A stretch of DNA of 19,479 bases from an uncultured Deferribacteres bacterium (GCA_964014485.1 CAXHAT010000152.1:1-19479), one strand, 5' to 3'; positions 72 through 19,479 are shown, numbered from the stretch's first letter. The notes: a model not told the origin generated them from the letters alone. A program made the numbers and translations.

Positions 72-197
72 TCGGCTGACCAGCGGTGAAAAAATCTGCT
101 ATGTAGAATTGTCGCCGTTTTGTCGGCCTTGAAGCAAATTTTGGGGGATGTTGAAAATTCAATAAAATCTGTAAGGTTACGCGAAAAGGAGTGGAGC

Positions 198-494: not shown

Positions 495-696
495 CAACAG
501 ACGCGATCACAGGCGCTATTATTGGCCCGCCGACAAGATCACCGCCGAAGACATGATCGTCCTTTACAAAATCAGACTCAAAACAGGAACGCCCATCAAC
601 CAGCTTTTGAAAAACGCCGTTCGGCTGCTCGAAAACGCCGAAGCGGGTAAAGCTCAAAAGGGCGTAAGCGTCAATGAGGCGCAAGGTTCGGCGTGA
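475..696 (+). CDS. Putative ribbon-helix-helix DNA-binding protein (73 aa)
   Basis: Part of ORF 400..696. ATG at 475 follows GGAG and overlaps the end of the previous gene. YYWPADKI-TAEDMIVLYKIRLK-TGTP-INQLLKNAVRLL fits a strand-helix-turn-helix RHH pattern. Confidence 0.55.
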   Translation: MKQGKVDNRRDHRRYYWPADKITAEDMIVLYKIRLKTGTPINQLLKNAVRLLENAEAGKAQKGVSVNEAQGSA

Positions 697-744
697 TCAG
701 CGCATCGTGGTAAAAAGTATACGCCCCGCCAGCTAAAAAAATGA

Positions 745-796
745 CGATCCCGTCCAAAGCAAACATCGTCCGCGCTTTCCCAACCGGACGGGATCG
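745..796. repeat. Perfect 11-bp inverted repeat with 30-nt spacer
   Basis: CGATCCCGTCC (745-755) and GGACGGGATCG (786-796), between convergent genes. Confidence 0.8.
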
Positions 797-879
797 AAAC
801 TTTTCTCCTGAAAAATTTCCCGAATAACGCTGAGCCTGCAACGGCGAAAACCGTCGGGCTTGGCAAAGCGCGCCCGAAA

Positions 880-1074
880 TCAGCTTTTCACGCTCTGATC
901 GTCGATGACCGCCTCGGTCGTGTTCTTGCGAATAGACTCGATGGCGTTCATCACCGATTGCTTGCGCGTGTAGCCCTGCCCCGAAAACATCGTCTCGCCG
1001 TTTGGCGCCACGAAACGAAACCGAAATTTGTCCTGATTGTCGCGATAAATTTCGAATTTATATTGGCCTGCCAT
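880..1074 (-). CDS. YegP family / DUF1508 (UPF0339) single-domain protein
   Basis: KFEIYRD..DKFRFRF.APNGE.MF.GQGYTRK.S..NAIESIRKN...A.I.D is the DUF1508 signature. Strong RBS (AAAGGAGAG) before the ATG. Confidence 0.93.
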   Translation of the reverse strand: MAGQYKFEIYRDNQDKFRFRFVAPNGETMFSGQGYTRKQSVMNAIESIRKNTTEAVIDDQSVKS

Positions 1075-1964
1075 TTCTCTCCTTTGCTGTGATAGGTAAT
1101 GCGAATATCCTGATTTGAAAAACCGTCAAGATATGACGTTCATCGACAGGATCAATCACAAAAACACGGAAAGGAACAAGAACGAACGCTCCCAAATCCT
1201 TTCTCGTCAACGCATTCGCCTTTGGAACAAGTTTGTTAACAAATCAGGGGGCGATGCAAGGCTTCAGATAAATAATCGGCTAAATCCGCTGTTTTGAAGC
1301 AAGACGGATTCGATCATATCCAAAGCGCCGGGCCGTCTGTCCGCGCGAATAGCGAACAGCCAACTCAAAGCAACTTGACGGTGAAGACCGTCGGTTACGG
1401 AAGACAACAGTCACGCACGTAAGGGGTTGGTTTCATTGGGTCAAAAAATAGGTTGGCGTTATCTTAGCGTTTTTAGTTGAGCTTTTAGTATGATGCCACG
1501 GACTGTTATCGCTGGATATGTTATTTGACGACGGTTTCATGAATTTTGCCCAAATGCTTTGTCATACATGTAAAGCGCCAAATCACCCTGTGCTGTCAGG
1601 ACGAAAGAGTTGCGGAAACTACATTTTAGTCAGTGACGCTGGATGCTACTTCAATTTGAGCGGTAACGGCGTCCTAATCTTCATCCCAAAATGCAATTTT
1701 TCATCGACCGTCCGGAAAAGTCACGCTAGATTCCTAATTTCACAATATCGCTTACACACCTGCAATTTCCCACTTCTAATAAATTGAGTGTTCCTTTGGC
1801 CTTTTTTGAAAAGGCCGTCAAAATAAACTTCACGAACCGTCTATTTAAGCAACCCAACCTCGATTTTTCTTCCTAATTAATCGCACCTTGCGGGACAAAT
1901 CGTGCATGCCTGAACAAAGTTTCTGCTCCGTCTGTTCATAAAAATCGAACATCGGAAATTCCGC

Positions 1965-1993
1965 TTGCCAAAACTAACCAAGCCCTTTAGCTT
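1965..1993 (+). promoter_or_regulatory. Putative sigma70 promoter for the DUF3857 operon
   Basis: TTGCCA (1965-1970), 17 nt, TAGCTT (1988-1993), about 100 nt upstream of the likely start at 2096. Confidence 0.4.
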
Positions 1994-2095
1994 ATACTCG
2001 AACATACGGGGCATTTTTCTCAGAAATCTTGTATGAAAACCGCTTTCGTTACATCTATAAAGAGAGATGAGTCGCCAGAAACTAGGAGAAATGTC

Positions 2096-6189: not shown

Positions 6190-6192
6190 GAG

Positions 6193-6331
6193 GGAGTTCA
6201 CTCCGAAGCGTCGGAGTGCTTGACAGCGCCCAAAAACACGCTGAAGCGTGGACTACAAACGACAGAGCTTCTCTTTACGCTCGGAGGAAAAAACGCACTG
6301 TCGTTTGCAGTCCATGCTTTAGCATGTTTTT
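6193..6331. repeat. Cluster of three REP-like palindromes in alternating orientation (BIME/REPIN-like)
   Basis: (+) GGAG-tt-CACTCCGA-agcg-TCGGAGTG at 6193-6218; (-) GTAG-tc-CACGCT-tc-AGCGTG at 6256-6237; (+) GCAG-tc-CATGCT-tt-AGCATG at 6307-6326. 6232-6265 and 6298-6331 form a 34-nt inverted repeat with 4 mismatches. Confidence 0.8.
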
Positions 6332-6378
6332 ACTCGTTCCCCAATTTAACGAGCATTTTCTTAGGATTACGCAGGAAC

Positions 6379-8484
6379 ATGAACTTTGTAAAAGATTGGC
6401 TCAAAAAAATGAAGACGTCGACATCTCTTGTGACAATCAGAATACTGTTGTCTGCGATGCTGCTCTGGCTGAATCCGAACGGCGTTTATGCGCAAAATGA
6501 TAAAGCGGAAACGTTCTTCTCGGATGCGCAAACGGCGTTTAACCGGACGCAGTGGGAAACGTGCGTCGTGCTCTGCGATTCGGCGTCGGCGCTTCAGCCC
6601 GGCTTTACTAAAAGTGCGCAATTGCGAAAAACCGCGCTGGATAAATGGATTCAAAAGGCGGATCAGTTTTTCAATTTATCCGAACATCGCGATGCGTTGA
6701 TTGAATATGAGAAGATTCTCAGGCATGAAAAAAGCCTCGTCCGCTTGTTTGAAAACGCTGCGAAATGCGCGCATCAAATCGGCGAATTCGAGCGCGGGTT
6801 CAAACTGCGGCGGGAATGGGCTGTGCTTTTCCCGGATGATTTCGAGGCGCAGTATCAGCTCGCCGTTTTTTTCGTCGGTCAATGCCGCTGGCCGGAGGCG
6901 GTCACGGTCTTGCGGCGGGCGCTCGAGTTGAAGCCGTTTCACAATGAAGCGAAGAATCATCTCAAAAAAAGCCTGCTTTACAGCACGCGCGCACAAGTCT
7001 GGGAAAACCTCGCGGACAGTCTGCGCGCAGCCGGCGACTGGCGGGAAGCCAATGTTTACCTCGATTCTCTAATCGCTATGCCGTGCGCGGATTTTGATTT
7101 CAAGAAACAACAAGACACGACGAACTACCGAATTTTGAAAGATGATCTGGATGGGGCGCTGGCGGAAAGTGATGTTCTCCGCGCCATGCCGCTTTTCAGC
7201 AAGTTCAGCGATCATTCTCTGCGAAATCAGGATGAGATGATCGATTATCAAAATCGGGTGCTGGATTTGTTTCGCAATCCGCCGCCGTCTCCGGTCAGGA
7301 TTGCGGAGATTCAAGCGCGTGACATTTTTGCGTCGCAGGCGGGTTTTCATCGGCGCAATCCGTGGCTGGAGGTCGAGTTGAGGCACGAGGGCGAAGACGT
7401 CGTTTTTGTTACACTGACCGCCGAGGTCAATCGTTACGATCTCAAAACCCGGGAATTGTTTGTATTCCATCCGGATTCCGGCAAAACGAAAACGGTCACG
7501 CTTCGTCTCGAGTCTTCCGACAAATTTCTCAAACAGCGGAAAGAAATTCGCCGCGAGGTCAGAGCGTCGGTGCGTTTGGAATCATACAGCGGGAAAGTGC
7601 ATAAAACAGTTGAGGCGTTCAGTCCGGAATTCATGGTTTACGGCAGGGGCAGCGTCGATTGGCAAAACGGCGTCGGTCCAGCAGCGGCGTTTGTGCTTTC
7701 GGAAGACAGGCTCGTGACGCAAATCGCGGACGCGGCGCAAATGATGTATCATGCGATGGCGGATTCAGTAGTTATCAACGAGAAAATCTCATTGGCGGCG
7801 CTGGTTTTCGAGATTTTGTCGCGTTACGGCGTCCGCTACAAATCCGACGGCGGCTTCGCGCAGAGAAGTGTTGACATAATTCAATATCCGTTCGAGCTTT
7901 TGCAATCCAGGCTCGGCGACTGCGACGACATGACCGTTTTATACGCTTCTATTTTGGAAAACCTGGGCATAGAAACGGCGATGCTCGATGTTCCCGGGCA
8001 TATTTTGCTGATGTTTGACACGGGGATTCACGACGCGCGGCGCCAGCGGATGATTCTGCCGAACGAGCAGTATGTGCGTTACAGAGACCGTATCTGGCTG
8101 CCGGTGGAAACAACGTTTTTGGGCAAGCCTTTCACCGAAGCGCTGGCCGAGGGGATGCGGCAATATCGACACGTTCGGGGCAGGGAAAAATCCGCCGTCA
8201 CCGAAACGCAAAAAGCATGGGAGACCTGGCCGCCGACGCCGCAAGTTCACAACGTCTCCGCATTGTCCCTGCCGGGTGCGGCGCTGATGCAGCCGTCGTT
8301 TCGTTTTTTCCGCGAACAAACCGCTGGGCGTCAAGAATCGTTTTTGCAAAGCTTCGAAGAAAGGCTGCGCCGAACGCCGTGCGACCCCGCCGTTTTTTCA
8401 GAATATTTGAAAGTTTTGATTCTCGGGGGAAAAAACGAATCCGCCAAATCGCTGCAAAAACGTTGGAGTCGCTGCAAGAATTAG
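6379..8484 (+). CDS. Secreted TPR-repeat protein with C-terminal transglutaminase-like (cysteine protease fold) domain
   Basis: ORF 6220..8484, but the TTG start lies in the REP cluster. The likely start is ATG 6379 (or 6409), giving a signal peptide ending VYA|Q. TPRs include FPDDFEAQYQLA..AVTVLRRALELKP. Catalytic-type motifs are GDCDD (Cys 7921-7923), PGH and WLPVETT. Confidence 0.88.
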   Translation: MNFVKDWLKKMKTSTSLVTIRILLSAMLLWLNPNGVYAQNDKAETFFSDAQTAFNRTQWETCVVLCDSASALQPGFTKSAQLRKTALDKWIQKADQFFNLSEHRDALIEYEKILRHEKSLVRLFENAAKCAHQIGEFERGFKLRREWAVLFPDDFEAQYQLAVFFVGQCRWPEAVTVLRRALELKPFHNEAKNHLKKSLLYSTRAQVWENLADSLRAAGDWREANVYLDSLIAMPCADFDFKKQQDTTNYRILKDDLDGALAESDVLRAMPLFSKFSDHSLRNQDEMIDYQNRVLDLFRNPPPSPVRIAEIQARDIFASQAGFHRRNPWLEVELRHEGEDVVFVTLTAEVNRYDLKTRELFVFHPDSGKTKTVTLRLESSDKFLKQRKEIRREVRASVRLESYSGKVHKTVEAFSPEFMVYGRGSVDWQNGVGPAAAFVLSEDRLVTQIADAAQMMYHAMADSVVINEKISLAALVFEILSRYGVRYKSDGGFAQRSVDIIQYPFELLQSRLGDCDDMTVLYASILENLGIETAMLDVPGHILLMFDTGIHDARRQRMILPNEQYVRYRDRIWLPVETTFLGKPFTEALAEGMRQYRHVRGREKSAVTETQKAWETWPPTPQVHNVSALSLPGAALMQPSFRFFREQTAGRQESFLQSFEERLRRTPCDPAVFSEYLKVLILGGKNESAKSLQKRWSRCKN

Positions 8485-8501
8485 CAACGCTTGCCTGTAA
8501 G

Positions 8502-11000
8502 CTAAAAAGTAATCGTCGGATCGCCGAAAAGGTAGTAAAAATAGCGTGTGATGTCATACTCGGGATCGTAGCCGCGAACCTTGTCGCGTTTGCCGAGATC
8601 GTTGATCGTGCGTCGCAGAGCTTCACCCGCGGGCAAGCCTTCATCAACAAAATGCTCGTAAAACACACCCGCGAACCACCCCGCGGTTTTCTCAAAGACA
8701 TCAAAACTCGTTACGATGCACGCCCCCGCGCCACAGGCCAGAAACTCCGTACACAAATGATCCATCCTGTCCCATTCTTCCGGCAATTTGCCTGAACTGC
8801 ACGCATTCAGAAAAACCAGAGGGCGCGAGACGAACCGAATCCCGGCGGTTTCCGAAATCGTTCCCGACTTCAAAAAATCCCGTTCGCCTACGTCCAAAAA
8901 TCCGTTCATTGCATGCCCGGCGTAGTGGATGAGCCGCAGGTTGTCTTTGTCCTCACATGCACGGCTGAGATTATGCAAAAAATCCTGCGTGCTGTCCTTG
9001 ATCGCCAAAGTCGTGCATTTCCGCCGAACAAACTGCCGCTGTAAATCCCCGACATGATCATTGACCGTCAACAACTCCTTGCCCGCGTGTCCGTTCCAGT
9101 CGCCGTAAAACAAAATCGCCATGCGATGATTCGGATTGTCCGGCGCTTGAAGAATTTCCTTTTCCTGCTCAAATCGCTTTTCGCTCGTGAAAGAAACGCC
9201 GATGCTGAATTTTTCACACAAGAAGACGCCGGAATCCGCATGATACGCCAACGGCCACGGCGCTTTCAGGTTTGGCGTAACGATTTGCAGAGGCAGCGAA
9301 GCGTCAAATTCGCTGAAAAGCCCGTCAAATCCCGCCCTGACGCCGAAGTGATCCTTGATCCGCGACCCGATTTTTTGCAGCATGGAAAGCGGCGACGGAT
9401 CGGGGTTTTCTTTGTGTAAAAGATGGTGAAAATATGCCTTCCAGACGGCTTCCAAATCATGGTTCAATTTGCGGGCGACGTTCATGGAAACTTGCAGCGG
9501 CGGGCGAATCTTAACCATGAACGGCTGCGCCGGGCCGGACCTGCGCAAATCGATCCAATGCGAATACCAGCAAGAGTCCCGTTCTTCGATGGCGAAGATA
9601 ACCAGAACGTAATATGATTGATTGGCCAATGTCCGTCCAAGCGTTCTGATTTCTTCGGGAATGCTGGCTTCCTGCCCGGCCACGAGTTCTTTCAATCGAT
9701 CTTGCTCACGCGCGGAAAAAATCCACTCCTTGCAGCCGTGAAGCAACGCCGCCAAAAGCACGAAAACCCCGACCGGCGTAACTGGCAGAACAGAACGCTC
9801 AAATTTGAAGAAAACAAATGCGGTCACGAGATAAAGCGCCGTCAATAAGACAACGCCGGAAATTTGCGCAAGCGGCCCCGGACGAGAAAAAATCCACAGC
9901 AGTCCGCAGCCAATGAAAATGAATAAGAAGATTTGAACCCGTGTCGAGGCAAAGGTAACAAATTGCCTGCGCAAAATATTATCAACGGCGTTGGCGTGCA
10001 GATAAACCCCCGGCAGCCCGAATTCCGGCGCGAACGGCGTGTAATGCGAATCGTTTTCATCAACAACGCTGCCGATGATCACGATTTTATCCCGAACTTC
10101 CCGCACAAGCTTTTTTTGCGCCGCGCTGTCGTCTGGTGAATTGACGAGCGTTTGAAATTCAGACCAGCCCATGCTCCGCGCCTGAAAAAGACGTGCCGGT
10201 CCAAGATGATTGATGAAAAACTCCCCCGTGTTCAGCATTGGAACATGGACATGATCTTCCCCCGCCGGCTTCAGAACGATGTGTTGATTTTCAATGCTGA
10301 TCTCATGATTTGAAACGCCGTAAAATTTTTTAACAACTTCAAGGGCAAACGCCGAAGAGAGTTCTTTCACACCATTCACCTCAATTTCGAGAAATCCTGG
10401 AATGCTCGTGGAATGATTATTTACCGGATCGAGCATGATATTGAGATGAGCGATGTCAGCGCCGGCTTCGCGCAGCATCGGTAAAACGAGCAAAGTATCC
10501 GGCGTGCTCATAAAAAAAGGATAATGGCTGACGGCGCATTTTTCACAAGGTGTGATGCCGGTTGAATCAAGAGCGGCATAATCTTTTTCCGAGGTTTCTG
10601 GAAAATAACTGCCGCTGATGAAGTGATCGGATGTTTCCGCTTCATCGATCAGGAGTGAATCTTCCGAGGCGATGTTTGGCTCTTCGAAGCGAAAATCGAT
10701 TGCGACCACTTTCGCGCCAAGACGGTGCAATTGGTTATGGAAAGCCGCCAGAAGTCCTCGTTGCGAAGGCAATTCCCCGAATTCAGCAACAGCCGCCGAA
10801 TCTTCGACAAGCAGCACAATCTCCGAAGAAAGTTTTGCCGAATCGTTTATGCGAAAGCGCAGGTCGATTGTGGATTGTTCCCAGGAACGGCCGAGAAATG
10901 TTTTAGAAGACAAGACCGCCGCTCCTGCCGCAACCGTAATCAGCAAGCTCGATATAACGAGCCTTGAATAACCTTCTTTCAAAAAATTGTGAAAATTCAT
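8502..11000 (-). CDS. Membrane CHASE2 sensor domain fused to a C-terminal CHAT (caspase-like) protease
   Basis: N-terminal TM helix, then CHASE2 motifs (EQSTIDLRF, GAKVVAIDFRF.EP, VRDKIVIIGS, D.HYTPF, PGVYLHANAVDNIL) and three TM helices. CHAT motifs follow: PWPL, FLCEKFSIG, IHYAGHA (His 8913-8915), VFLNACSSG (Cys 8799-8801), FLACGA, FYEHF..G..GEAL, YYLFGDP. Confidence 0.92.
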   Translation of the reverse strand: MNFHNFLKEGYSRLVISSLLITVAAGAAVLSSKTFLGRSWEQSTIDLRFRINDSAKLSSEIVLLVEDSAAVAEFGELPSQRGLLAAFHNQLHRLGAKVVAIDFRFEEPNIASEDSLLIDEAETSDHFISGSYFPETSEKDYAALDSTGITPCEKCAVSHYPFFMSTPDTLLVLPMLREAGADIAHLNIMLDPVNNHSTSIPGFLEIEVNGVKELSSAFALEVVKKFYGVSNHEISIENQHIVLKPAGEDHVHVPMLNTGEFFINHLGPARLFQARSMGWSEFQTLVNSPDDSAAQKKLVREVRDKIVIIGSVVDENDSHYTPFAPEFGLPGVYLHANAVDNILRRQFVTFASTRVQIFLFIFIGCGLLWIFSRPGPLAQISGVVLLTALYLVTAFVFFKFERSVLPVTPVGVFVLLAALLHGCKEWIFSAREQDRLKELVAGQEASIPEEIRTLGRTLANQSYYVLVIFAIEERDSCWYSHWIDLRRSGPAQPFMVKIRPPLQVSMNVARKLNHDLEAVWKAYFHHLLHKENPDPSPLSMLQKIGSRIKDHFGVRAGFDGLFSEFDASLPLQIVTPNLKAPWPLAYHADSGVFLCEKFSIGVSFTSEKRFEQEKEILQAPDNPNHRMAILFYGDWNGHAGKELLTVNDHVGDLQRQFVRRKCTTLAIKDSTQDFLHNLSRACEDKDNLRLIHYAGHAMNGFLDVGERDFLKSGTISETAGIRFVSRPLVFLNACSSGKLPEEWDRMDHLCTEFLACGAGACIVTSFDVFEKTAGWFAGVFYEHFVDEGLPAGEALRRTINDLGKRDKVRGYDPEYDITRYFYYLFGDPTITF

Positions 11001-11004
11001 GCAA

Positions 11005-11598
11005 TTAATTTCCCGGCTCGAACCAAAAAAGGATGGGCTTCAATTCTTCAGGAAGGAATCTTTTCTTTTTGCCGCCGGATTTTGCTCCTCTCCTTTTCTT
11101 ACCTCCTTTTTTCACGTCCTTCGATCCGCCGCTCTTACTCGCTCGCTTTTTGCCGGAAGTGATCATCGCCGCCATCACCTCCGCCTCGGTCACGTTGCGC
11201 GCCCCCGCTCTCGAGGTCGCTTCATCGCCTTCGTAATGCAATCCAAGCTTGGCAAAGAGCGTTTTGAAGCTGCCGCCGGAAAGTTCATAAGCGTCTCCAA
11301 ACATTTCATCAGCGCTCAGCGTGTCATCTATCATCAAATAAATAATGCCAAGATTCAGCAAAACGCCTTCTTCTTCCGGCGCCAGACGTCTCGCCTTCAT
11401 GTAAAAATCAATCGCGCGATCAATCGCCGTCGAATCTTCGACCGCTTGCATGACCTCGAAATTCCCCTGCCCCGTCCAATACGCCGCCGAATCCAGGTTC
11501 GCCTTCCGCTGCGTCTCTCCCGTCTCTTGCGCCGCAACACCCGAAAACGCCGCCGTCAACCCCAAAACCATCAAAAAACATTTCAAAAATCGCAACAT
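11005..11598 (-). CDS. Secreted TPR protein with Lys/Gly-rich low-complexity C-terminal segment
   Basis: GAGG RBS and signal peptide ending VAA|Q. TPR motif AIDFYMKARRLAPEEEGVLLNLGIIY. The stop is 4 nt from the CHASE2-CHAT start. Confidence 0.85.
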   Translation of the reverse strand: MLRFLKCFLMVLGLTAAFSGVAAQETGETQRKANLDSAAYWTGQGNFEVMQAVEDSTAIDRAIDFYMKARRLAPEEEGVLLNLGIIYLMIDDTLSADEMFGDAYELSGGSFKTLFAKLGLHYEGDEATSRAGARNVTEAEVMAAMITSGKKRASKSGGSKDVKKGGKKRRGAKSGGKKKRFLPEELKPILFWFEPGN

Positions 11599-11699
11599 AA
11601 TACCCTCGACTAAAAAATCATTCTGACTCTAATCATTTTGTCCGCCCCAACCCGGACAAGCCGGAACCAATCAGGAGCGGTCATTCAATCTCGTGACTT

Positions 11700-11845
11700 A
11701 ACGCAGAGACGCAGAGCTTCGCAGAGTTTTTTAAAGCAAAAATTTAGAGATACGTTTTTTCAGTATCATACTTTGGATTTCTGCGGGATTGAACTCAAAA
11801 TTAAAACTTCTCTGCGCAACTCTGCGTCCTTTCCGTCTCTGCGTT
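11700..11845. repeat. Intergenic inverted-repeat element built of tandem CGCAGAG units
   Basis: Left arm AACGCAGAGACGCAGAGCTTCGCAGAG (11700-11726); right arm CTCTGCGCAACTCTGCGTCCTTTCCGTCTCTGCGTT (11810-11845). The outer 12 bp are perfectly complementary and the interior is AT-rich. Confidence 0.8.
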
Positions 11846-11904
11846 TTGGAAAGTTTTGCCAAAAATTGGCAGAAAATGTCTTAACAGACACTAAAACAAT
11901 CAAA

Positions 11905-14040
11905 TCACTCCCGCGGATAACCATTGTCCAAAATCAGCCGCCCCTTCCTGGTGTCTCCAATCAATTCCAAAAGTCGTGCATAACGATACCGCGCTCGAAA
12001 ATCACCCGGATTTTCCTGAAACGGTCGCTCATAGTTTTCCTCAACGAACGCGGCTCTCTGTAAATGATAAGGCTGTAAATCGCCCCGCACCAACGCGCCT
12101 GCAATAACCTGTTCGACGGGAAAACTCGGATTAAAATCGTCAGAGAACGCCAGCGGCGTGTAACGATGCGTCTCCCTCGCCAGGGCGACTTCGGCGAACT
12201 CGAACGCATCGTGATTTTTGAACTCGTGGTACTGCGCCGCGCCCTTTTTCCAGGCATCGAGAAACGAGCGCAGGTTCGGCTTGCCGTACCAGGTTGTCTC
12301 CACCGGCAGCCACACCCTGCCGTCGCGCACGACATACTGCTCCTTGGGAACACAGAGCTTGAATCGTCTCGTCGCATGAATCCCCGTATCGAACGCCAGC
12401 AGCAAATGTCCCGGCAGCCCGATCAACGCGGTGTTCACGCCCAGACTCTCCAAAACCGAGGCCAGCAAAATCGTCATATCGTCGCAATCACCCTCCCCGC
12501 TTTGCAGCAGTTCGCGCGGATATTGAATGACGTCCAGATCGGGATAATTCGGGTCTTGCTTGTAAAGAATGTCCATCTTTCGCAGAAAATTATACGCCGC
12601 CGCAACCGTCGTCATCGTTTTGTTCACCAGCGAATCCTTTTGCGAATACACGAGTTTTTGCACCCGCGCCGCGATTTCAGCCACCAGCGCGTCTTCCGGC
12701 ATCACGAACGCCGCCGCCTGCGCCACGCCGTGCTCATCCAGCCAATAAATATTATTTCGCCCGTTCAGCCGGAATGTGACAAAATCCCGCCGATCCGGCC
12801 GGCTTGCCAATCGTGTTTTCGAGTCGATGATCACGCTGGCCTGCAACGGCTCGCGTACATCCTGGCCCAGCGCCAGAATTCTGTCCGGCAAAATCACCGG
12901 CACGTCGATGATCCGGCTCTCCGGCAAATTCGGATCGATCTTGAAGTTTTTCTCCGCCTTGATGCCAAATTTTTTCTCGATGATTTCAATCTTCCCGGAA
13001 ATCGTTTTTTTGCCCCTGTACGAGACAAAAACCCGCGCCCACGGTTCACTCGAATGATACATCTTCTGCGAGGCGAAAAGATCGTGTAAAACCACCGAAT
13101 CGATTTTCACCGGCGAAGTTGGCGGGTCGAGCAGCAATTGCACATTGTAGCGGTTCATGTCTTCCAGAAACGGCGTGTCGGTAAAGGCAAAATCCGTCTG
13201 AATGAAATCCACCCGCAGGCTCAGTCCGGCTGAAAAAGTCCAGTCCTGCTCGCCAATGTTCCGAATAGACTTCTGAACGCCCGCGCGCAAACCCAGGATA
13301 TTCTTGAACCACCCTTCCAAACCTACATGGTAACGGTCGTCAACATCGACGGCGATCATTGGCTCATGAAAAAACAACAACTTATCCAGCTTATACGCGG
13401 CGCCCACGCGAACATTGCGCGGAAAAAGCGTCTCCGCCGCGTCCGCCCCGTTGCGATGCAGTTTTGTATCGAAAGCGTCCTGCACCATCAGGCCAAACCG
13501 GAGATTCTTCACCGGCATAAACAACGCGCCGAAATCCGCGCCCCAGCCGGAAGCCCTGCCCTCGTCCTGCAGGTCGAGAAAAGCGCCGTAATCCAGATAT
13601 TTCACATTCGCGCCGAACGACAAGCGCCCGGACGCACGATAGCTTAGCGAAAGCGCCAGCTTGTTTTGCGAATAACGCAACTCGTTGTCATCCAGGCCAA
13701 GATGGTGTAAGGAAAGACCAAAGGCGATATTATCCGGATCATTGATGAAGGGAATGTTCGGCAGCAGCAAGGCGAGATAATTATTGCCGATGTCCGTGCC
13801 GTAAAGATTGGCGTGCATGAACTGAAACTCGTAGCGATCCCCAAACGCCATGCCGGCGGGATTCCAGTAGAGCGCGTCCGCTCCTTCCGCCACCGCCGCG
13901 AACGCATCTCCCATCCCCGGCCCGCGCGCCCCCACAAACTGTGGATTCCTGATTCGCGAAGGCTCTGAGTCATCGTTCGTCTGCCCAAAAGCCCGCCCCG
14001 CGAAAACAAAAATGAAAATACAAACAATCCACACTCTCAC
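11905..14040 (-). CDS. PorV/PorQ-like (FadL-type) outer-membrane beta-barrel fused to a transglutaminase-like domain
   Basis: ORF 11905..14106. The better start is GTG 14040 (GGAGG RBS, signal peptide MRVWIVCIFIFVFAGRAFG|Q). The barrel N-terminal motif GARGPGMGDAFAAVAEGADALYWNPAGM is followed by amphipathic strands (FGANVKY, GADFGALF, LRFGLMVQD, VRVGAAY, LRAG). The C-terminal half has GDCDD (Cys 12484-12486), PGH and WLPVETT. Confidence 0.9.
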   Translation of the reverse strand: MRVWIVCIFIFVFAGRAFGQTNDDSEPSRIRNPQFVGARGPGMGDAFAAVAEGADALYWNPAGMAFGDRYEFQFMHANLYGTDIGNNYLALLLPNIPFINDPDNIAFGLSLHHLGLDDNELRYSQNKLALSLSYRASGRLSFGANVKYLDYGAFLDLQDEGRASGWGADFGALFMPVKNLRFGLMVQDAFDTKLHRNGADAAETLFPRNVRVGAAYKLDKLLFFHEPMIAVDVDDRYHVGLEGWFKNILGLRAGVQKSIRNIGEQDWTFSAGLSLRVDFIQTDFAFTDTPFLEDMNRYNVQLLLDPPTSPVKIDSVVLHDLFASQKMYHSSEPWARVFVSYRGKKTISGKIEIIEKKFGIKAEKNFKIDPNLPESRIIDVPVILPDRILALGQDVREPLQASVIIDSKTRLASRPDRRDFVTFRLNGRNNIYWLDEHGVAQAAAFVMPEDALVAEIAARVQKLVYSQKDSLVNKTMTTVAAAYNFLRKMDILYKQDPNYPDLDVIQYPRELLQSGEGDCDDMTILLASVLESLGVNTALIGLPGHLLLAFDTGIHATRRFKLCVPKEQYVVRDGRVWLPVETTWYGKPNLRSFLDAWKKGAAQYHEFKNHDAFEFAEVALARETHRYTPLAFSDDFNPSFPVEQVIAGALVRGDLQPYHLQRAAFVEENYERPFQENPGDFRARYRYARLLELIGDTRKGRLILDNGYPRE

Positions 14041-14091
14041 AACTACCTCCCAATCCCGGCGCGCCGCCGGAGGTATAAGAAATTTAGTTCT

Positions 14092-14158
14092 AACCACTGA
14101 GTTCACGGAGGAACATAGAGAAAACTTTTCCGTGCAGCATCCTCATCTTTCCGTGGTT
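14092..14158. repeat. Degenerate inverted-repeat element (AACCAC...GTGGTT, CACGGAG-type units)
   Basis: AACCAC (14092-14097) pairs with GTGGTT (14153-14158); CACGGA (14104-14109) pairs with TCCGTG (14129-14134). Same mirrored-unit architecture as 11700-11845. Confidence 0.5.
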
Positions 14159-14170
14159 CAATTTATTTGT

Positions 14171-14200
14171 TTGACAAATGCGGCTTGTTTTTATTACCAT
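14171..14200 (+). promoter_or_regulatory. Putative sigma70 promoter for the TA islet
   Basis: Perfect TTGACA (14171-14176), 18 nt, TACCAT (14195-14200). Confidence 0.45.
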
Positions 14201-14254
14201 TCTTGAAAAGCTGCATTTGAAGCTGGCTGACTCCCAAAAGGATGATCTAACATT

Positions 14255-14488
14255 ATGACACTCACTCTCAAACACTCAATTGAGCGGGAAATCGCCTATT
14301 TGTCAATCGGACAGCGTAAAACTCTGCAGCGTATCCAGGCGTTTCAGAATAAGTACGGCGTACAACTTTCCGCTGAAACGCAAGACATTCCCGCGCTGGA
14401 CAAAGTCGAATGGGAAGGCGGGGAAATAACGCTGCGAAAACTGCAAGAGAAAATCCAAAGCTTAAACATGCACCAAACCTTTCCATGA
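14255..14488 (+). CDS. Small helical hypothetical protein, antitoxin-like, possibly N-terminally truncated
   Basis: IEREI..L.....KT.QRIQAFQNKYG...D.VEWEG...LRKLQEKIQSL resembles small coiled-coil putative antitoxins (recalled, unverified). AAGGA lies upstream. Confidence 0.5.
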   Translation: MTLTLKHSIEREIAYLSIGQRKTLQRIQAFQNKYGVQLSAETQDIPALDKVEWEGGEITLRKLQEKIQSLNMHQTFP

Positions 14489-14569
14489 AAAATAACTCGA
14501 AACTGTTGATTTTCGAACAGCATAAACGTTATCTTTACAGAAGCATTCATAACAAAACAGGCGGCTCGT

Positions 14570-15124
14570 ATGCAAAAAAGCTTCGACGAACAAAGACTCA
14601 AAGAGATGATTTTATACATCTCCAAATGCTGTGCAGACCAATCCAATTTCAGCGAAACCCGGCTTCGAAAAATTCTGTTTCACGCCGATTTTCTGTGGTT
14701 TGGCCGCACCGGCAAATCCATGAGCGGCGAAACCTACTTTTTAGCAAAACCCGCCCCGCTGCCGCAGCATTTTGACGCCGTCCGTGATAAACTGGCAATC
14801 AAAGGCGTTCCAAATTTTCATAAAAACTCGTTTGCCAATGGCGAACGCGCAGCGGAGATTCAGGACGCGCCCGCGAAGTTCAGACGACTCTCAACGCAGC
14901 AAATGGCGTTCATCGATGAGATCATCGTCTCGTTGAAAAACGACTCAGCGCCGAACTGGGAAAACAGCCTCGAAAAAACCTTACAGCCTGGCGGCGAAAT
15001 TCCTTATCAAACAGTGTTTTTCAGCCAAAAACAGCCGCTTTCCAAAGAAGAAATCGAGCAAGCCCAGGCGTTCGTCGACGCCTATGAAAAGCGCATGAAA
15101 GAACGCCGGCATGCTGCTGTATAA
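14570..15124 (+). CDS. Panacea (DUF4065/SocA-like) domain antitoxin
   Basis: RLKEMILYI...TRLRKILFHADF.WF.RTGKSMSGETY....PAPLP corresponds to the Panacea KL.KLLY.ADF...G.SITG..Y....GPVP motif. C-terminal GEIPYQTVF. It overlaps the next gene by 14 nt. Confidence 0.85.
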   Translation: MQKSFDEQRLKEMILYISKCCADQSNFSETRLRKILFHADFLWFGRTGKSMSGETYFLAKPAPLPQHFDAVRDKLAIKGVPNFHKNSFANGERAAEIQDAPAKFRRLSTQQMAFIDEIIVSLKNDSAPNWENSLEKTLQPGGEIPYQTVFFSQKQPLSKEEIEQAQAFVDAYEKRMKERRHAAV

Positions 15125-15413
15125 CATTGTCGAAGAACCTGAATTTTCCGATGCGTTCGACAAGTTAGAGCTTGAGTATCCTATTCTAACCGAAATCAAA
15201 CGCGGCCTCGACTTCTTCCTCAGCCGCCAGCCCTTCGATCTGGGCGAGCCGATTCCTCGAATGCCCGTTTCAGCATACGGCGCGTTTTTCGTCTGCAAAT
15301 CCACTACCTTCGACATTTTCAGCTATCCCGTTTTCAAATTTTACTACAGAATCGTCGATGACGCCGTCTACTTGATCGGCGTCTATAAATCCACCAACGG
15401 CGAAATCCGCTGA
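15111..15413 (+). CDS. Putative RelE/ParE-fold toxin
   Basis: 100 aa, coupled to the Panacea gene. The pattern YNIVEEPEFSDAFDKL...L.RQP..GEPI...FKFYYRI....VYLIGV matches RelE/ParE topology. Confidence 0.6.
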   Translation: MLLYNIVEEPEFSDAFDKLELEYPILTEIKRGLDFFLSRQPFDLGEPIPRMPVSAYGAFFVCKSTTFDIFSYPVFKFYYRIVDDAVYLIGVYKSTNGEIR

Positions 15414-15479
15414 ACTTGTTCAACGGTTAGAAGACCAAACCTTCAAAAACCAAATCTGTCGGAAAACCAAACCGCTGGA

Positions 15480-16811
15480 CTAATTCACAATCATCACCGT
15501 CCCCGTCATCGCTTTGTTTTCAGTAAGAAGGCGCACGATGTAAAGACCCGTCGGGCAGAAACGGTTGGCGTCGTCGCGGCCGTACCAGGAGATGATTTTG
15601 CTGCCGGCGCTCAGGATGTTTTCGCCGTTTTCGAGCTTGCGCACCAACCTGCCGGAGGTGTTGAAAATCCATAGCCTGACCGTGCCGGACTTCTCCAAGA
15701 AAAAAGAAATGTCGGCGCGCTCGTTCAAACCGCCGCCGCGCGGACGGATAATTCGGGGCGTTATGACGATGCCCGGCTCGTCCCCGCCCGGCGCTTCAAT
15801 GTCGTCCGGCGGAGTGCCGTCGCTCAGCGCAGCGGCGTAGAGACCGATGCGGTCGACGCCGACGGCGAAAGTGGAATCTTCGCGGTTCACGCTGCCGCCG
15901 AGCAAGTTCCACTGCCAGTCGTTTTCATGCCAATCACCGCGATAGAACCGCAGTTTCTCCGCCCGCGCGAAATCCTGCGGGCGCAGTTTCATCGTCAGCG
16001 TGCTCTTTTTCGTGAACGCGCTGTTGAGGTCGCCAATGCTGGAATGGATCTGCACGATCCCGGACGGCAATGGCGTGATCTTGCCGAACGAGCCATCAAA
16101 ATCCGTAGAATCGCGTAATTCGAGGCAGAGCAGCGCTGCCTGGTAGCCGTTTGCCGGAATGGTGAGCGTGAACGGCCCCTCGCTCTGCTGCAAACCGCTG
16201 CGCACGTCGAACTGAAGATTTTCCACCACGAATTCCACTGAAGCCGTATCCGCACCGCCTGCCTTGTCTACGGCGCGCAAGTACATTGTGTAATTCCCGA
16301 CCTCGTTCGGCGTTTTGAAGGGCCCGGCTCCGGAACCTTCTTGCAAGAGCGTGTCGATCACCGTGACCGTGGTATCGCCCATTTTTTGATAGAACAACGA
16401 GGCGATCTCGAGATTTTTTTCGTCGACGTGAAAGCGGTAGGCGGCGAAACAACCGAGGGTGTCGCCGGGTTCCGGCTCACTAATGGCCACAGCCGGCGGC
16501 GTGTTGTCGATGGTGAGCAGGATGGCGTCGTTTTTCTTTTCGGGATTATCCTTCTGAAAAACGTCGAGGGAAAGCGTGTACGCGCCGTCGGGATATTCGC
16601 CGTTGTCGGTATCGAATTCATCGAATAACGATTCCTCCGCTGACTCGCCTTTTGGATCTCGGCTCTCGATGAGCTTCGGATTTCTGAGCCGCTGACTTTT
16701 CGAACTCAAGGAAAGCGTGTAATGATCGAAGTCATCCCCCAGCGCATAACCGAGAATGTCCACTGAATCGCGCACGAAAGCCTGGTTGCGCGGCTCGAAA
16801 ATAATCGCCGC
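15480..16811 (-). CDS. C-terminal part of a large surface protein: Ig-like domains plus a terminal FlgD-like Ig/T9SS-type C-terminal domain (out of frame with its upstream part)
   Basis: ORF 15480..16961, credible from AAIIFEP onward. Ig-like motifs DGAYTLSL, IDNTPPAVAISEP, GNYTMYLRAVDKAG. The C-terminus reads VRLWIFNTSGRLVRKL...ISWYGRDD..RF.PTGLYIVRL. No signal peptide. Confidence 0.8.
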   Translation of the reverse strand, partial: AAIIFEPRNQAFVRDSVDILGYALGDDFDHYTLSLSSKSQRLRNPKLIESRDPKGESAEESLFDEFDTDNGEYPDGAYTLSLDVFQKDNPEKKNDAILLTIDNTPPAVAISEPEPGDTLGCFAAYRFHVDEKNLEIASLFYQKMGDTTVTVIDTLLQEGSGAGPFKTPNEVGNYTMYLRAVDKAGGADTASVEFVVENLQFDVRSGLQQSEGPFTLTIPANGYQAALLCLELRDSTDFDGSFGKITPLPSGIVQIHSSIGDLNSAFTKKSTLTMKLRPQDFARAEKLRFYRGDWHENDWQWNLLGGSVNREDSTFAVGVDRIGLYAAALSDGTPPDDIEAPGGDEPGIVITPRIIRPRGGGLNERADISFFLEKSGTVRLWIFNTSGRLVRKLENGENILSAGSKIISWYGRDDANRFCPTGLYIVRLLTENKAMTGTVMIVN

Positions 16812-19455
16812 TCGCATCTTTCGCGGGCCAAACCCAGGAAAACAACTTTTGGCCTTTCCAGAGCAATGTATCCGGTGTAATATCATCTCCGTATTGGCCG
16901 TTGATATCGTAATCCAGCCTCGCTTCCTTAATTTCATGATCGAAAACATTTGATTGCACATGCACAGGCTTGCCCAACGTGTCGCCCTCGGCTGGTGAAA
17001 ACAGTTTCAAGCCTATCAACTCTTCAGGATCAAAATAGCGTAGATTGACGACGGCGGGATTGAGATAGCCGCTGTTCCCCGCGCTGTCTTCCAACCAGAC
17101 GAACAAGCGCTGACCAAACTGCTTCTTTGCTTCCACTTTCAGGCGCGGCGTGAACTCCAGTTTAGCGGAATCAGAACCGACAAAATCGATCTCTTCGTTC
17201 GGACGTTCATCAAACCGGTAGAGGTAGCGCGCGACGCCGCTGAGATCGGACGGATTATCCCAAGTGATCACAAACGAATTGTCTCCTTGCTGCCACGGGC
17301 TTGGGTTGCCGCCAGTGGCCTGCAAATTCTTAGGCGCTTGCGGTCTGTCAATATCGACGATAAAGCTCCACGTCTCGGACATTTCGCTCAACTCGAAACC
17401 GTCCCAGGCGAAGACGCGCCAAAAATATTGACCGTCGGCGAGTGAATCCGTCGTAAAACTCACCTCACCGCCACCTTCCAAAATCGGTGGTTTTGGCCGA
17501 AATCCTGTTGTACTCATACTGTCACTTCGAAACGGACTGCCGTCAATTTGAAATTGAAATGCATTATCTTTCGCGATTTCTACCTGAAAGTGGAGCGAAT
17601 CCATATCCGGGTCCGAAGGAGCAAACCAGGAGAGCGTTGGCGTAAAATCATTGCCCTTGTAAAAGTTTGGCGGCGAGACCAGCTTGGGTTTTTCCGGATC
17701 ACGCCTGAAAGTCACAAATTGATAATCGTCTATCTCCATACGATTGCCGGCGTTGTCCTGCGCCTCGATAGAGACGAAGATTGTTTTGCCATAACCAAAA
17801 TTTTCCGGCGGATCATAAGTCACACTAAAATCTGTGTCTTCTCCCGTAACCGTCAGGGCCGATGGGTCGATGGCAATGCTGTTGACCTTCATTTCAATCG
17901 ATTCCGGCATCACGCCGCTCAAGCTGTCCATCAGATGAAAAGTAATATTCGCATCCACCGCCACGCCGGAATCGCCGTCCGCCGGCTGATGCATTGCGGT
18001 AAACGGCGGACGGGTGTCGATAGTGAAAGAATGGATGTCGGAAATCTCGCCCAGTTCGAAGCCGTCCCAGGCGGTCACGCGCCAGAAATACCTGCCGTCC
18101 GGCAAAGAATCCGGCGGTGTAAAACTCACATCTCCTCCACCTGCCGCGACTGGCAGCATTCTATTGAACCCTGTACTATCCACCCAGCTCTCAAACGGGC
18201 TGCCTGCAATTTGGCTGGAGAAATCGCTATCCTTCGCAATTTCGACTTTGAAATGGAGAGAATCATCATCCAAATCTACAGGCGCAGAAAAAGAAAACGT
18301 TTGCTCGGAACTTGAAGAAAAGATTCCATTCTCAGGCGTTTGCAAAGCGGGCGGTAATGATTTGTGGTTGAACAGATCAATACGCGCAAAAATATCTCCA
18401 CCTTGACCTTCATTACGCCCGTCTCCCCAAGTGTAGTAAATACGTCCGTCAACTAGTTTGACGCTTGGCCATGTTTTGGATGTCTGCTCAAAATTATTGT
18501 TTACACGATAGTTTTGTCCTTTGAAATTGCCAAGCCCTTGAAAGCGTTGTGCATTGATACCGAACTCGCCAATTATCTCAGGAAATGTGGATAGAGTATC
18601 CGACCATTCCCATGCGACGACAAAATTACAACGGCCTTCTGCCGCAACCGTTGGATGAGGCTCAGAGCGAAAATTTATATCAGAATCTATTTTGATATTC
18701 CCCCCTACCGCTGAACCAGTCGGATCATAAAATTGCCCGAAGATATCGCCGGTACTGTTTCGATCATCTTCCCATACAATTAAAGCGCATCCGTCATCAT
18801 CAAGAGCCATAACTGGAGAATCTTGATTTTTGGTTCCAGCATCATCATTGACTTTGAAGCTGCCTGTTGGAAATTCAACTGTATCGAAGTGAAAACGCTG
18901 CCCAAAAATATCGCTATCATTCCTTCCACCCCTTTTTTCTTCCCAAACAATCAAAACTGAATCCGCCGAGTCGATGACAATAGCAGGTGGATCGTGAACA
19001 AAAAATTCTCCAGTTGCAGTGCTGTCAATTTCTATATTACTTCCAATTGTATCGCCTTCCATATCGAAACGCTGCGCTAGGACATGAATCTTCTGGCTTT
19101 CACATTGGATTTTCCAAGTAATAATAAAACTACCGTCTTGGCGAGTCGCGATATTTGGCCTTGAACGAGTCTGCGCGCAAACTAAATCTTCAACGATTTT
19201 TTTGTTTTTTCCGATTGCGTTACCGTTTACATCAAACATTTGAAAATAATTCCCCCACCCTTCCCCATGTCCCTCCCAAGTTATTATAAAGCTCTTGTCT
19301 TCTCGAAACGCCATAGATACAGCGGCCCGATTAACACTATTCCCTTCGTCTGAAACGATAATCTTTTCCGCAATTCTAGCGCCGCTAGAATTAAAGAATT
19401 GGGCGTGTATCTTATCATTGGCGCTATTAACCTTTGGTGCTAGTGGATTTATAGG
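16732..19455 (-). CDS. Upstream part of the same large surface protein: ~55-aa beta-rich (propeller-like) repeats, two FN3-like duplicated domains and Ig-like domains; disrupted at both ends
   Basis: ORF 16732..19314, but the frame is open upstream to a TAG at 19458-19456 and continues the repeat pattern (KIHAQFFNSSGARI). Repeat unit P.VA.D..G..IVWED.R....DIFGQ.F...G..VG.N.KVNDD. Duplicated domain DSLHF.VEIAKD..F..QI.GSPF...DG.YFWRV.AWDGFEL.E.S...SF..D. Confidence 0.8.
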   Translation of the reverse strand, partial: PINPLAPKVNSANDKIHAQFFNSSGARIAEKIIVSDEGNSVNRAAVSMAFREDKSFIITWEGHGEGWGNYFQMFDVNGNAIGKNKKIVEDLVCAQTRSRPNIATRQDGSFIITWKIQCESQKIHVLAQRFDMEGDTIGSNIEIDSTATGEFFVHDPPAIVIDSADSVLIVWEEKRGGRNDSDIFGQRFHFDTVEFPTGSFKVNDDAGTKNQDSPVMALDDDGCALIVWEDDRNSTGDIFGQFYDPTGSAVGGNIKIDSDINFRSEPHPTVAAEGRCNFVVAWEWSDTLSTFPEIIGEFGINAQRFQGLGNFKGQNYRVNNNFEQTSKTWPSVKLVDGRIYYTWGDGRNEGQGGDIFARIDLFNHKSLPPALQTPENGIFSSSSEQTFSFSAPVDLDDDSLHFKVEIAKDSDFSSQIAGSPFESWVDSTGFNRMLPVAAGGGDVSFTPPDSLPDGRYFWRVTAWDGFELGEISDIHSFTIDTRPPFTAMHQPADGDSGVAVDANITFHLMDSLSGVMPESIEMKVNSIAIDPSALTVTGEDTDFSVTYDPPENFGYGKTIFVSIEAQDNAGNRMEIDDYQFVTFRRDPEKPKLVSPPNFYKGNDFTPTLSWFAPSDPDMDSLHFQVEIAKDNAFQFQIDGSPFRSDSMSTTGFRPKPPILEGGGEVSFTTDSLADGQYFWRVFAWDGFELSEMSETWSFIVDIDRPQAPKNLQATGGNPSPWQQGDNSFVITWDNPSDLSGVARYLYRFDERPNEEIDFVGSDSAKLEFTPRLKVEAKKQFGQRLFVWLEDSAGNSGYLNPAVVNLRYFDPEELIGLKLFSPAEGDTLGKPVHVQSNVFDHEIKEARLDYDINGQYGDDITPDTLLWKGQKLFSWVWPAKDASGDYFRAAQPGFRARFSGHSRLCAGG

Positions 19456-19479
19456 CTAAACTCGGCAATTGAGATCGGC

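Follow-up and report, generated by a model that had tools for sequence, protein, structure and literature searches.

Background

In the LapD-LapG-LapA system, a periplasmic cysteine protease of the transglutaminase fold stands between an inner membrane receptor and a surface protein held in an outer membrane channel, and in FecA-FecR-FecI and the SusC-like/anti-sigma systems an outer membrane barrel relays a surface event through a periplasmic extension to an inner membrane protein governing a cytoplasmic output. To our knowledge, little is known about what CHASE2 receptors sense, their input having been obscure since the domain was named. Here we describe a locus of an uncultured Deferribacteres bacterium in which a CHASE2 receptor is encoded close behind a PorV/PorQ-like outer membrane barrel fused to a transglutaminase-like module. 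The locus lies on contig C152 of an 8.4-Mb genome in 465 contigs; the contig was analysed over its entire 19,479 bases and is called the window below. Metagenome-assembled genomes (MAGs) of KSB1, 'Zhuqueibacterota', Zixibacteria and Eisenbacteria hold the nearest named relatives of the window proteins.

PorZ of Porphyromonas gingivalis consists of two seven-bladed propellers and a retained C-terminal domain (CTD), forms a 1:1 complex with PorQ, its anchor on the cell surface, and has as its nearest structural relative the glycan-binding sensor of a hybrid two-component system (PMC5562754, PMC5121618). Sinorhizobium meliloti NsrA, an outer membrane barrel, is genetically required for the CHASE2 adenylate cyclases CyaK, CyaD1 and CyaD2, which answer a protein signal from outside (PMC7529298, PMC13001267). 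A metacaspase-CHASE2 fusion of Trichodesmium erythraeum is presented with 1 + 3 membrane helices and a protease predicted to be cytoplasmic (PMC3501461). A literature search, with supplements and subscription journals outside its reach, returned no publication joining CHASE2 with type IX secretion (T9SS), nor CHASE2 with a CHAT domain. The module reported here uses components of the T9SS and has apparently not been described in the literature; signalling from a barrel to an inner membrane receptor is itself known.

A candidate trans-envelope module

We consider it somewhat more probable than an even chance that the locus represents a conserved sensing module by which T9SS bacteria signal across the envelope, an outside-in relay from a PorQ/PorZ-style complex to CHASE2. 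Its genes encode the following products, whose linkage is conserved in related loci:

15480..19455, minus strand: surface 'cargo' gene with immunoglobulin (Ig)-like repeats and a T9SS-type CTD; frameshifted, 5'-incomplete
11905..14106, minus strand: PorV/PorQ-like barrel and transglutaminase-like fusion (NF033709, PF01841, AlphaFold2 (AF2) model)
11005..11598, minus strand: signal-peptide tetratricopeptide repeat (TPR) protein, 197 aa (hhalign to the fused-family alignment)
8502..11000, minus strand: CHASE2-CHAT inner membrane receptor, 832 aa (Pfam, hydropathy)

An initial annotation of this DNA had described the four as co-oriented minus-strand genes. All are indeed on the minus strand, but they are not contiguous: a plus-strand Panacea pair lies between cargo and barrel.

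In the signal path that we infer, a T9SS-exported protein would keep its CTD, and a dedicated PorV/PorQ-like barrel would hold it on the surface in the way that PorQ holds PorZ. From the barrel, a C-terminal arm composed of an Ig-like sandwich, a Cys-His-Glu module and TPRs with a basic tail and an aromatic end would extend into the periplasm, the TPR part of the arm being supplied in the window by a separate secreted protein. This arm would contact the acidic periplasmic CHASE2 domain of the inner membrane receptor, and a change in the surface protein would thereby reach the cytoplasmic end of the receptor. In the window this end is a caspase-like CHAT protease, which would cleave a cytoplasmic target. 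As for the transglutaminase-like module, it may cut a partner, cross-link it or only bind it.

If this is correct, a T9SS surface complex of the PorQ-PorZ type would be extended from secretion to signalling, and caspase-like CHAT proteases would gain an upstream receptor. The module sets a defined periplasmic arm beside CHASE2 in several phyla, which turns the question of CHASE2 input into one of binding between two named domains, and with paralogues that have a sigma-54 activator output, the relay could readily be followed through transcription. The carriers seen all belong to uncultured lineages (the KSB1-type phylum, Zixibacteria, Eisenbacteria), in which signalling is almost unstudied.

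Conservation of gene order and exchange of outputs

A GTDB locus scan (one genome per species), made with a 13-row alignment whose pattern lies in the barrel, returned 80 loci, only six of which carry the enzyme arm (L004, L005, L006, L007, L010 and L029). Within the window's phylum, a profile of the sandwich and enzyme matched 75 of 167 genomes (73 of 165 without the unpublished G158 and G162), and matches to the enzyme module formed two groups, long open reading frames (ORFs) of 745-951 aa and a commoner class of about 530-580 aa. The long class comprised 25 matches outside the own genome; 20 of these (15 genomes, 7 families) were analysed, while three matches on unpublished genomes, plus G153:C635 and G154:C10, were left out. 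With the six loci from KSB1, Zixibacteria, Eisenbacteria and an unclassified MAG, this gave 26 related loci. Our own hidden Markov models (HMMs) detected barrel and enzyme in 20/20 phylum loci, and neighbouring genes, called by a longest-ORF rule, were scanned against Pfam. Downstream of the barrel-enzyme gene we found:

CHASE2-CHAT: L115, L119, L120, L122, L123, L126, L127, L130, L133 (n = 9)
CHASE2 cut by the contig end: L116 (n = 1)
CHASE2-sigma-54 activator, adjacent: L117, L125, L129, L132 (504-aa TPR protein between) (n = 4)
CHASE2-sigma-54 activator, 6 kb off on the other strand: L118 (n = 1)
CHASE2 with no recognised output: L124 (n = 1)
CHASE2-SpoIIE/PP2C: L005, L006, L007 (n = 3)
CHASE2-cyclase: L029 (n = 1)
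secreted WD40 and Peptidase_C14 protein of about 1150 aa, without CHASE2: L114, L121 (n = 2)
1302-aa protein without a family: L010 (n = 1)
nothing on that strand: L128 (n = 1)
contig ends: L004, L131 (n = 2)

In 19 of the 24 assessable loci, a CHASE2 gene comes directly after the barrel-enzyme gene on its strand, separated from it by no more than one TPR gene. Upstream, 22 of 26 loci encode a protein with a FlgD_ig-type tail no further than two genes away and in the same orientation, L029, L116, L118 and L132 being the exceptions. The order seen in the window is therefore conserved, and the exchange of CHASE2 outputs, about which the initial annotation had asked, is also found, with CHAT, a sigma-54 activator, a PP2C phosphatase and a cyclase as alternatives. 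Because the same order recurs in 26 related loci, the arrangement is more than chance, and because the order is conserved and the output swapped, a functional unit spanning the envelope, with CHASE2 as its receiving end, is supported. The annotation's interpretation, a relay of a surface event (cell contact, phage, predator) through a periplasmic cleavage step to a caspase-like output, is upheld in part: a conserved unit that spans the envelope and exchanges its CHASE2 outputs is supported, and the cleavage step, the stimulus and a role in immunity or cell death stay conjectural. Outside-in flow is favoured because the cytoplasmic domains (CHAT, sigma-54 activator, PP2C, cyclase) are exchanged on a constant outer part.

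The upstream protein carries Reg_prop propellers in 18/26 loci, mostly with a length of about 1000-1060 aa, and FG-GAP repeats in three; in L119 it carries CBM9/Big_13, and a GH9 gene stands between cargo and barrel genes. In most related loci, the cargo and barrel genes overlap or lie immediately side by side. Several genomes hold paralogous copies that differ in output (three in G136, three in G161 and two in G133). From coordinate tables, G135:C677 has the end of an enzyme module (1-309) followed by CHASE2 (1256-2242). In L114 (11129-14584) and L121 (11100-14531), the downstream protein combines a C-terminal Peptidase_C14, WD40 and a signal peptide with no membrane segment, and would supply the barrel arm with a caspase-fold partner in the periplasm.

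The related loci resemble PorQ-PorZ and PorV-PorU, both parts of the T9SS attachment complex, in pairing a PorV/PorQ-family barrel of the 14-strand type with a CTD-keeping secreted protein, which has propellers and a FlgD_ig tail in 18/26 loci, and by this analogy a PorQ-PorZ-like reading fits them. They differ in the C-terminal extension of the module barrel, some 400-550 aa of sandwich, transglutaminase-like part and TPR for which PorV and PorQ have no equivalent, and in that, unlike PorQ-PorZ, the barrel is followed by a CHASE2 receptor and occurs in several paralogous copies per genome.

The barrel-enzyme protein

The barrel-enzyme protein (14106-11905, minus strand) has 733 aa when read from its GTG; the database form has 711 aa from GTG 14040, which is likely the true start. 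Its parts, all on the minus strand, are:

about 13935-13141, minus strand: barrel domain (AF2 model, NF033709)
13119-12742, minus strand: Ig-like beta-sandwich (domain model)
12741-12142, minus strand: transglutaminase-like core, with a short helical tail after it (domain model)
Cys 12486-12484, His 12408-12406, Glu 12300-12298, minus strand: catalytic-type codons (alignment)

The PorV/PorQ family profile NF033709 matched aa 58-322 (E 1.4e-22; 80.7 bits, under the curated 90), and PorV proper (NF033710) scored 26.6 against a cut-off of 250. By its profile scores, the barrel is a divergent PorV/PorQ relative and no orthologue. The AF2 model (pLDDT 85.4) begins with a barrel, which is followed by a beta-sandwich, an alpha/beta domain and helices, and its best PDB matches in Foldseek were 6h3i_F (E 1.2e-11, TM-target 0.68) and 8gl6_F (E 5.2e-10), followed by FadL and TodX. 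We take chain F of both 6h3i and 8gl6 to be PorV, with which the chain lengths of 345 and 367 agree. A search of about 5.8 billion protein clusters yielded 31 relatives; about 24 span most of the protein, and most are of about 850 aa with a C-terminal TPR region.

Transglut_core (PF01841) matched aa 499-602 (19.2 bits against a gathering score of 23; E 0.0015). Cys541 (in GDCDD), His567 and Glu603, in the 733-aa numbering, are invariant in 13/13 aligned relatives and at least 90% conserved in 25, so the barrel with a Cys-His-Glu module stands as first annotated. The triad is kept in eight of nine module copies, the exception being a copy linked to CHAT on contig C128, and its conservation argues that the module would be active in the barrel-linked copies. 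In a model of the sandwich and enzyme domain (pLDDT 86.9), two halves are seen. The Ig-like sandwich half is best matched by a GH2 accessory domain (Z 11.2). For the core half, VIA-align gave the putative protease 3kd4_B (Z 10.3; root-mean-square deviation (rmsd) 2.9, 132 aligned), LapG 4fgo_A (Z 9.2; rmsd 3.4, 138 aligned), PNGase 2f4o_A (Z 9.0), factor XIII and TglA (both Z 8.8), 3isr_A (Z 8.2) and the pseudomurein endoisopeptidases PeiP and PeiW (Z 8.0 and 7.8), and Foldseek of the same model gave TG2/TG3 and TgpA (E 3e-5 to 2e-3). Animal transglutaminases, too, have their core preceded by a sandwich. Searching the PDB with a sequence profile of the enzyme module found no solved relative.

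Both ends of FadL/PorV-type barrels lie in the periplasm, and the arm is therefore expected to be periplasmic. In FecA-FecR-FecI and the SusC-like/anti-sigma systems the relay uses a TonB-dependent transporter, an N-terminal signalling domain and an anti-sigma factor, whereas here the parts would be a FadL/PorV-type barrel, a C-terminal arm and CHASE2.

The LapG match bears on an inside-out control of the LapD-LapG-LapA kind, in which the receptor would sense a cytoplasmic state and use its periplasmic domain to hold or free the protease, and the protease would cleave the surface protein or its anchor and so release it from the barrel. LapG is a periplasmic adhesin-releasing protease, and a protease-like module is fused here to the very barrel expected to hold the surface protein; the two arrangements share a transglutaminase-fold protease between inner membrane receptor and surface protein, the protease fold being all that they share. 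LapG is, however, one of many transglutaminase-fold matches with similar Z, CHASE2 is classed as an extracytoplasmic sensor, and the cytoplasmic domains of the module are typical outputs, unlike ligand-binding inputs such as the degenerate GGDEF-EAL of LapD. The Lap system further differs in running inside-out from cyclic di-GMP, in its HAMP-GGDEF-EAL receptor, in its free protease and in its type I secretion, and Pfam scans of the window and the 26 loci detected no LapD-type receptor with HAMP and degenerate GGDEF-EAL. We regard inside-out control as unlikely.

A T9SS attachment or anchoring device is, in our estimate, rather unlikely too. Here the barrel would be a PorQ-like anchor for one cargo, its arm would tie the complex to peptidoglycan or process envelope polymers, and the CHASE2 gene would only serve to regulate or monitor this branch of secretion. 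A PorZ-like cargo beside a PorV/PorQ-family barrel in 18/26 loci suits such a device, as do the cross-linking chemistry of transglutaminases, the fold resemblance to PeiP and PeiW, and a second barrel type (OMP_b-brl, on contig C103) that is also fused to the module. The several paralogous copies per genome with different outputs nevertheless fit sensors better than a core secretion part, the arm occurs on only two of the 31 PorV-family ORFs of the own genome, and CHASE2 or caspase partners are nearly constant.

The small TPR protein

The protein encoded at 11598-11005 (minus strand; 197 aa) has a hydrophobic signal-like N-terminus and a weak TPR-type match (MamA, E 7e-4), in keeping with its first description as a signal-peptide TPR protein. 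It has a lysine-rich tail and ends in ILFWFE (terminal sequence KKKRFLPEELKPILFWFEPGN). The fused relatives of about 850 aa carry TPR repeats, a basic stretch and a comparable aromatic end (ILWWA, LLYWK, VFYWAE), and a tail of this type is also found in L116, L119, L010 and the fused forms. In hhalign, residues 35-196 aligned to columns 698-851 of the fused family with a probability of 96.5% (E 9.2e-10). By this alignment, the small TPR protein is the split-off C-terminus of the usual barrel-enzyme-TPR fusion, a gene fission. The same split layout is found in L116 and L119, where a 738-aa barrel-enzyme protein without TPR is followed by a small TPR gene (193 aa and 248 aa) and then CHASE2.

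The gap between barrel and TPR genes is 306 nt, and the TPR gene stops 4 nt ahead of the start of the CHASE2-CHAT gene, confirming the spacing first reported. A scan for promoters and terminators over 8300-15600 gave counts as in shuffled sequence (9 against 5.3, standard deviation (sd) 2.2, and 11 against 12.5, sd 3.9), with nothing in the gap at 11598-11905.

The CHASE2-CHAT receptor and the proposed relay

The receptor (11000-8502, minus strand) matched CHASE2 (PF05226) at aa 27-364 with 87.3 bits against a cut-off of 26.3, and CHAT (PF12770) at aa 581-807 with 37.1 bits against 24. Its hydropathy gives 1 + 3 membrane segments, at aa 14-32 and then three within 347-422:

10961-10905, minus strand: membrane segment 1 (hydropathy)
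10922-9909, minus strand: CHASE2 (Pfam)
9962-9735, minus strand: three membrane segments (hydropathy)
9260-8580, minus strand: CHAT protease domain (Pfam), predicted cytoplasmic
His696 8915-8913 and Cys734 8801-8799, minus strand: codons of the CHAT dyad (alignment)

As CHASE2 is preceded by a single membrane segment and followed by three, CHAT would be cytoplasmic if the N-terminus is inside. His696 (YAGHA) and Cys734 (LNACSS) are invariant in 10/10 CHASE2-CHAT relatives, so that the proposed CHASE2 receptor with a cytoplasmic CHAT dyad withstood closer analysis; the CHAT match of the window is 37 bits compared with 104-127 in most relatives. The Trichodesmium fusion differs in its N-terminal Peptidase_C14, where the window protein has a C-terminal CHAT, and no barrel or cargo partner is described for it in the accessible part of that report. 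With NsrA the likeness is one of layout, namely an outer membrane barrel with a large non-barrel part upstream of inner membrane CHASE2 receptors; the NsrA case concerns another phylum and barrel type, and its accounts, so far as available, report no T9SS cargo or transglutaminase-like module and give the cyclase as sole output.

The periplasmic parts of CHASE2 are net acidic in 10/10 (-4 to -20) and most tails are strongly basic (about +10 to +15), a difference in charge that lends the relay slight support. Complex prediction for three chains (enzyme arm, TPR protein and, as their partner, the periplasmic domain of CHASE2), run without controls, gave scores of 0.00 and 0.19, the mark being 0.32, and speaks neither for nor against the relay. 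Several observations weigh against the outside-in relay. The contact between arm and CHASE2 is a supposition, and the direction of signalling is read only from the kinds of cytoplasmic domains. An adjacent CHASE2 gene is absent in five of the 24 assessable loci (L114, L121, L010, L128 and L118), the carrier genomes are kin, so that locus counts overstate independence, and the longest-ORF gene calling is simple, with many tail matches at or just under the Pfam cut-off. No gene for a CHAT substrate was consistently nearby among 18 downstream ORFs from L117, L120, L122-L127, L129, L130 and L133, or in the window. The window's own copy, in which the cargo gene is frameshifted and displaced, may be partly decayed and may not be working as a whole. 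Finally, most CHASE2 genes of the phylum, and three of the four in the own genome, are not beside such a barrel: CHASE2 is matched at least 362 times, in 145 of 167 genomes (143 of 165 once the two unpublished ones are set aside), compared with 25 long barrel-enzyme matches.

The barrel module would for this last reason explain only a subset of CHASE2 receptors. A wider proposal is that CHASE2 domains in general are receptors for outer membrane-tethered arms, and that in this module a surface event at a T9SS-anchored protein would prompt the transglutaminase-like enzyme, as a live protease, to cut its own TPR tail or CHASE2 and so unleash the caspase-like protease, in a two-protease cascade spanning the two membranes that would decide cell fate (death, dormancy or differentiation); we give it a small but appreciable chance.

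Directly after CHASE2-CHAT in L119, but in none of the other loci examined nor the window, lie genes for an extracytoplasmic function sigma factor (Sigma70_r2) and a zf-HC2 anti-sigma-like protein (12228-13574); the latter could be a CHAT substrate.

Paralogous loci in the same genome

By HMMs, the genome encodes 31 PorV-family ORFs, six enzyme modules and four CHASE2 proteins. The T9SS is represented by SprA_N, over its cut-off at 150 bits (C104), and by a PorU sortase with 825 bits against 420 (C135), and at least 49 further CTD-region matches were found. Contig C128 carries the second barrel-enzyme-TPR gene (815 aa), followed by genes for a secreted PD40 protein and a 602-aa CHAT protein. 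The latter begins with a CHAT domain and has a single membrane segment at 225-243; its C-terminal, periplasmic part is a further copy of the enzyme module, with Gly, Arg and Asn in place of Cys, His and Glu. To judge from these residues, the copy would be dead, which suggests that the module can serve as a binding partner only. Overall, tethering of the enzyme module to outer membrane barrels recurs, as does its pairing with CHASE2 or caspase-fold proteins.

Further genes around the C128 paralogue (L001, G000:C128:3700-23621, 4620-19221) encode CHAT-TIR-AAA_35, AAA_35-WD40, CHAT-Lcl_C, HlyD and phosphoesterase proteins, a conflict-system-like neighbourhood.

Caspase-fold partners dominate in the phylum, with nine CHASE2-CHAT and two secreted WD40-C14 proteins among 20 loci, and an anti-phage or conflict system would make the surface protein a decoy or sensor for phage or competitors and CHAT the executor of arrest or death. 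The CHAT-TIR-AAA_35 and AAA_35-WD40 genes at C128 and the toxin-antitoxin-like pair inserted in the window point the same way, as does a match of the enzyme module (aa 464-656, 12142-12741) to the NCBIfam anti-phage protein ProA (NF058533; E 2.8e-12, 44.9 bits against a cut-off of 1500). That match covers only positions 116-316 of 1903 and is shared by the protein encoded at 6220-8484 in the window (E 4.8e-8); a literature search for 'anti-phage protein ProA' gave no usable paper. On the other hand, PADLOC-DB 2.0 matched 0 families among the six window proteins scanned, elsewhere sigma-54 activators, PP2C and cyclases, all of them ordinary outputs of signalling, are driven by the same module, and the cargo types (glycan-sensor-like double propellers, FG-GAP, CBM9, a GH9 neighbour) resemble nutrient or surface sensing. 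A role in defence is, in our judgement, quite improbable.

Other loci of the genome show further combinations. On C147 (L003, G000:C147:5000-20577, 6216-10505), a sigma-54 activator with a partial CHASE2 (31.8 bits) is encoded 40 nt upstream of a secreted enzyme-module protein of 669 aa, a link to CHASE2 without a PorV-type barrel match. On C103 (L002, G000:C103:1-20000, 5414-12029), an OMP_b-brl barrel is fused to an enzyme module of the class of about 540 aa, upstream of genes for a CarboxypepD_reg TonB-dependent receptor, DUF4249 and DUF4097; ORFs of about 530-580 aa are the commonest enzyme-module form of the phylum. On C22 (L134, G000:C22:34000-51000, 2681-9489), a FecR-domain protein and an 850-aa secreted protein without a family precede a CHASE2-cyclase, and may represent a second, NsrA-like kind of envelope partner for CHASE2. 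On C1 (L136, G000:C1:33500-49500, 91-9090), CHASE2-cyclase-TPR and DUF4384 genes are divergent from those of a 1223-aa T9SS-tailed protein and a Peptidase_C14 caspase, a further grouping of CHASE2 with a CTD protein and a caspase. The CHASE2 gene of C76 had no evident partner among its neighbours.

The surface cargo gene

The cargo is encoded in two overlapping frames, 19314-16732 (860 aa; Big_13, Big_5, fn3) and 16961-15480 (493 aa; C-terminal tail). The FlgD/CTD-tailed repeat surface protein of the initial annotation is recognisable in its tail, with matches below the curated cut-offs (FlgD_ig 22.6 against 27, Por_Secre_tail TIGR04183 20.3 against 23, CHU_C 18.3 against 27), but no intact gene is present, given the frameshift and the absent 5' end. 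The tail is 36-54% identical to many other CTD tails of the same genome, and the window's cargo is not of the propeller type. Because the L119 homologue (1242 aa; CBM9, Big_13, FlgD_ig) aligns to both frames, with residues 285-754 at 18372-16900 and 819-1239 at 16811-15474, the cargo is a single gene with a change of frame between 16811 and 16900. Public contigs from three runs of one study are identical to the window where they cover it; they cover 16733-16894 at a depth of about 4 and leave 16895-16945 uncovered, so that a real frameshift and an assembly error are indistinguishable.

The upstream frame is shut by a stop at about 19455, close to the contig end at 19479, and no signal peptide follows the first ATG at 19314. 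Over 19344-19479, summed contig depth in run X1 is 27.9, compared with about 5-7 elsewhere, and a 1347-base contig of run X2 extends beyond the end of the window. The contig probably ends in a repeat, and the 5' part of the cargo gene may be in the sample.

The state of the cargo gene, frameshifted and 5'-incomplete, is what would be expected if the genes of the window were neighbours by descent in a decaying remnant without a functional link, as are the inserted toxin-antitoxin-like pair and the weak CHAT match (37 bits against 104-127 in most relatives). The barrel-enzyme, TPR and CHASE2-CHAT genes are, however, intact, with triad and dyad kept; the same split layout occurs in L116 and L119; and at a depth of about 4 the frameshift is possibly an assembly error. 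A remnant of this kind strikes us as very improbable.

Neighbouring genes of the window

Apart from the four genes above, the window contains the following:

14570..15413, plus strand: SocA_Panacea gene and overlapping 100-aa ORF (PF13274), a toxin-antitoxin-like pair
6220..8484, plus strand: convergent secreted TPR, beta-sandwich and transglutaminase-like protein, 754 aa; likely start 6409
2033-4081 (682 aa) and 4078-6189 (703 aa), plus strand: two tandem DUF3857 and Transglut_core genes with a 4-nt overlap

The SocA_Panacea gene (14570-15124, plus strand; 184 aa) matched PF13274 with 31.7 bits, and the 100-aa ORF (15111-15413, plus strand) matched no Pfam family. The two look like a Panacea-type toxin-antitoxin pair inserted between cargo and barrel genes. 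The pair is outside the conserved module, relatives carrying nothing or a GH9 gene at that spot. Searches of the window with Rfam (gathering score) and for tRNA gave no match.

The protein encoded at 6220-8484 is, in its C-terminal half, a paralogue of the barrel protein's enzyme arm (about 340 aa at 35-37% identity) and keeps GDCDD intact. Whether its gene is a member of the module is uncertain, and L119, the closest related locus, has no counterpart of it. Paralogous pairs of the tandem DUF3857 and Transglut_core genes are present on contigs C83 and C145, and four transglutaminase-fold genes, the barrel fusion included, fall within 12 kb of the window.

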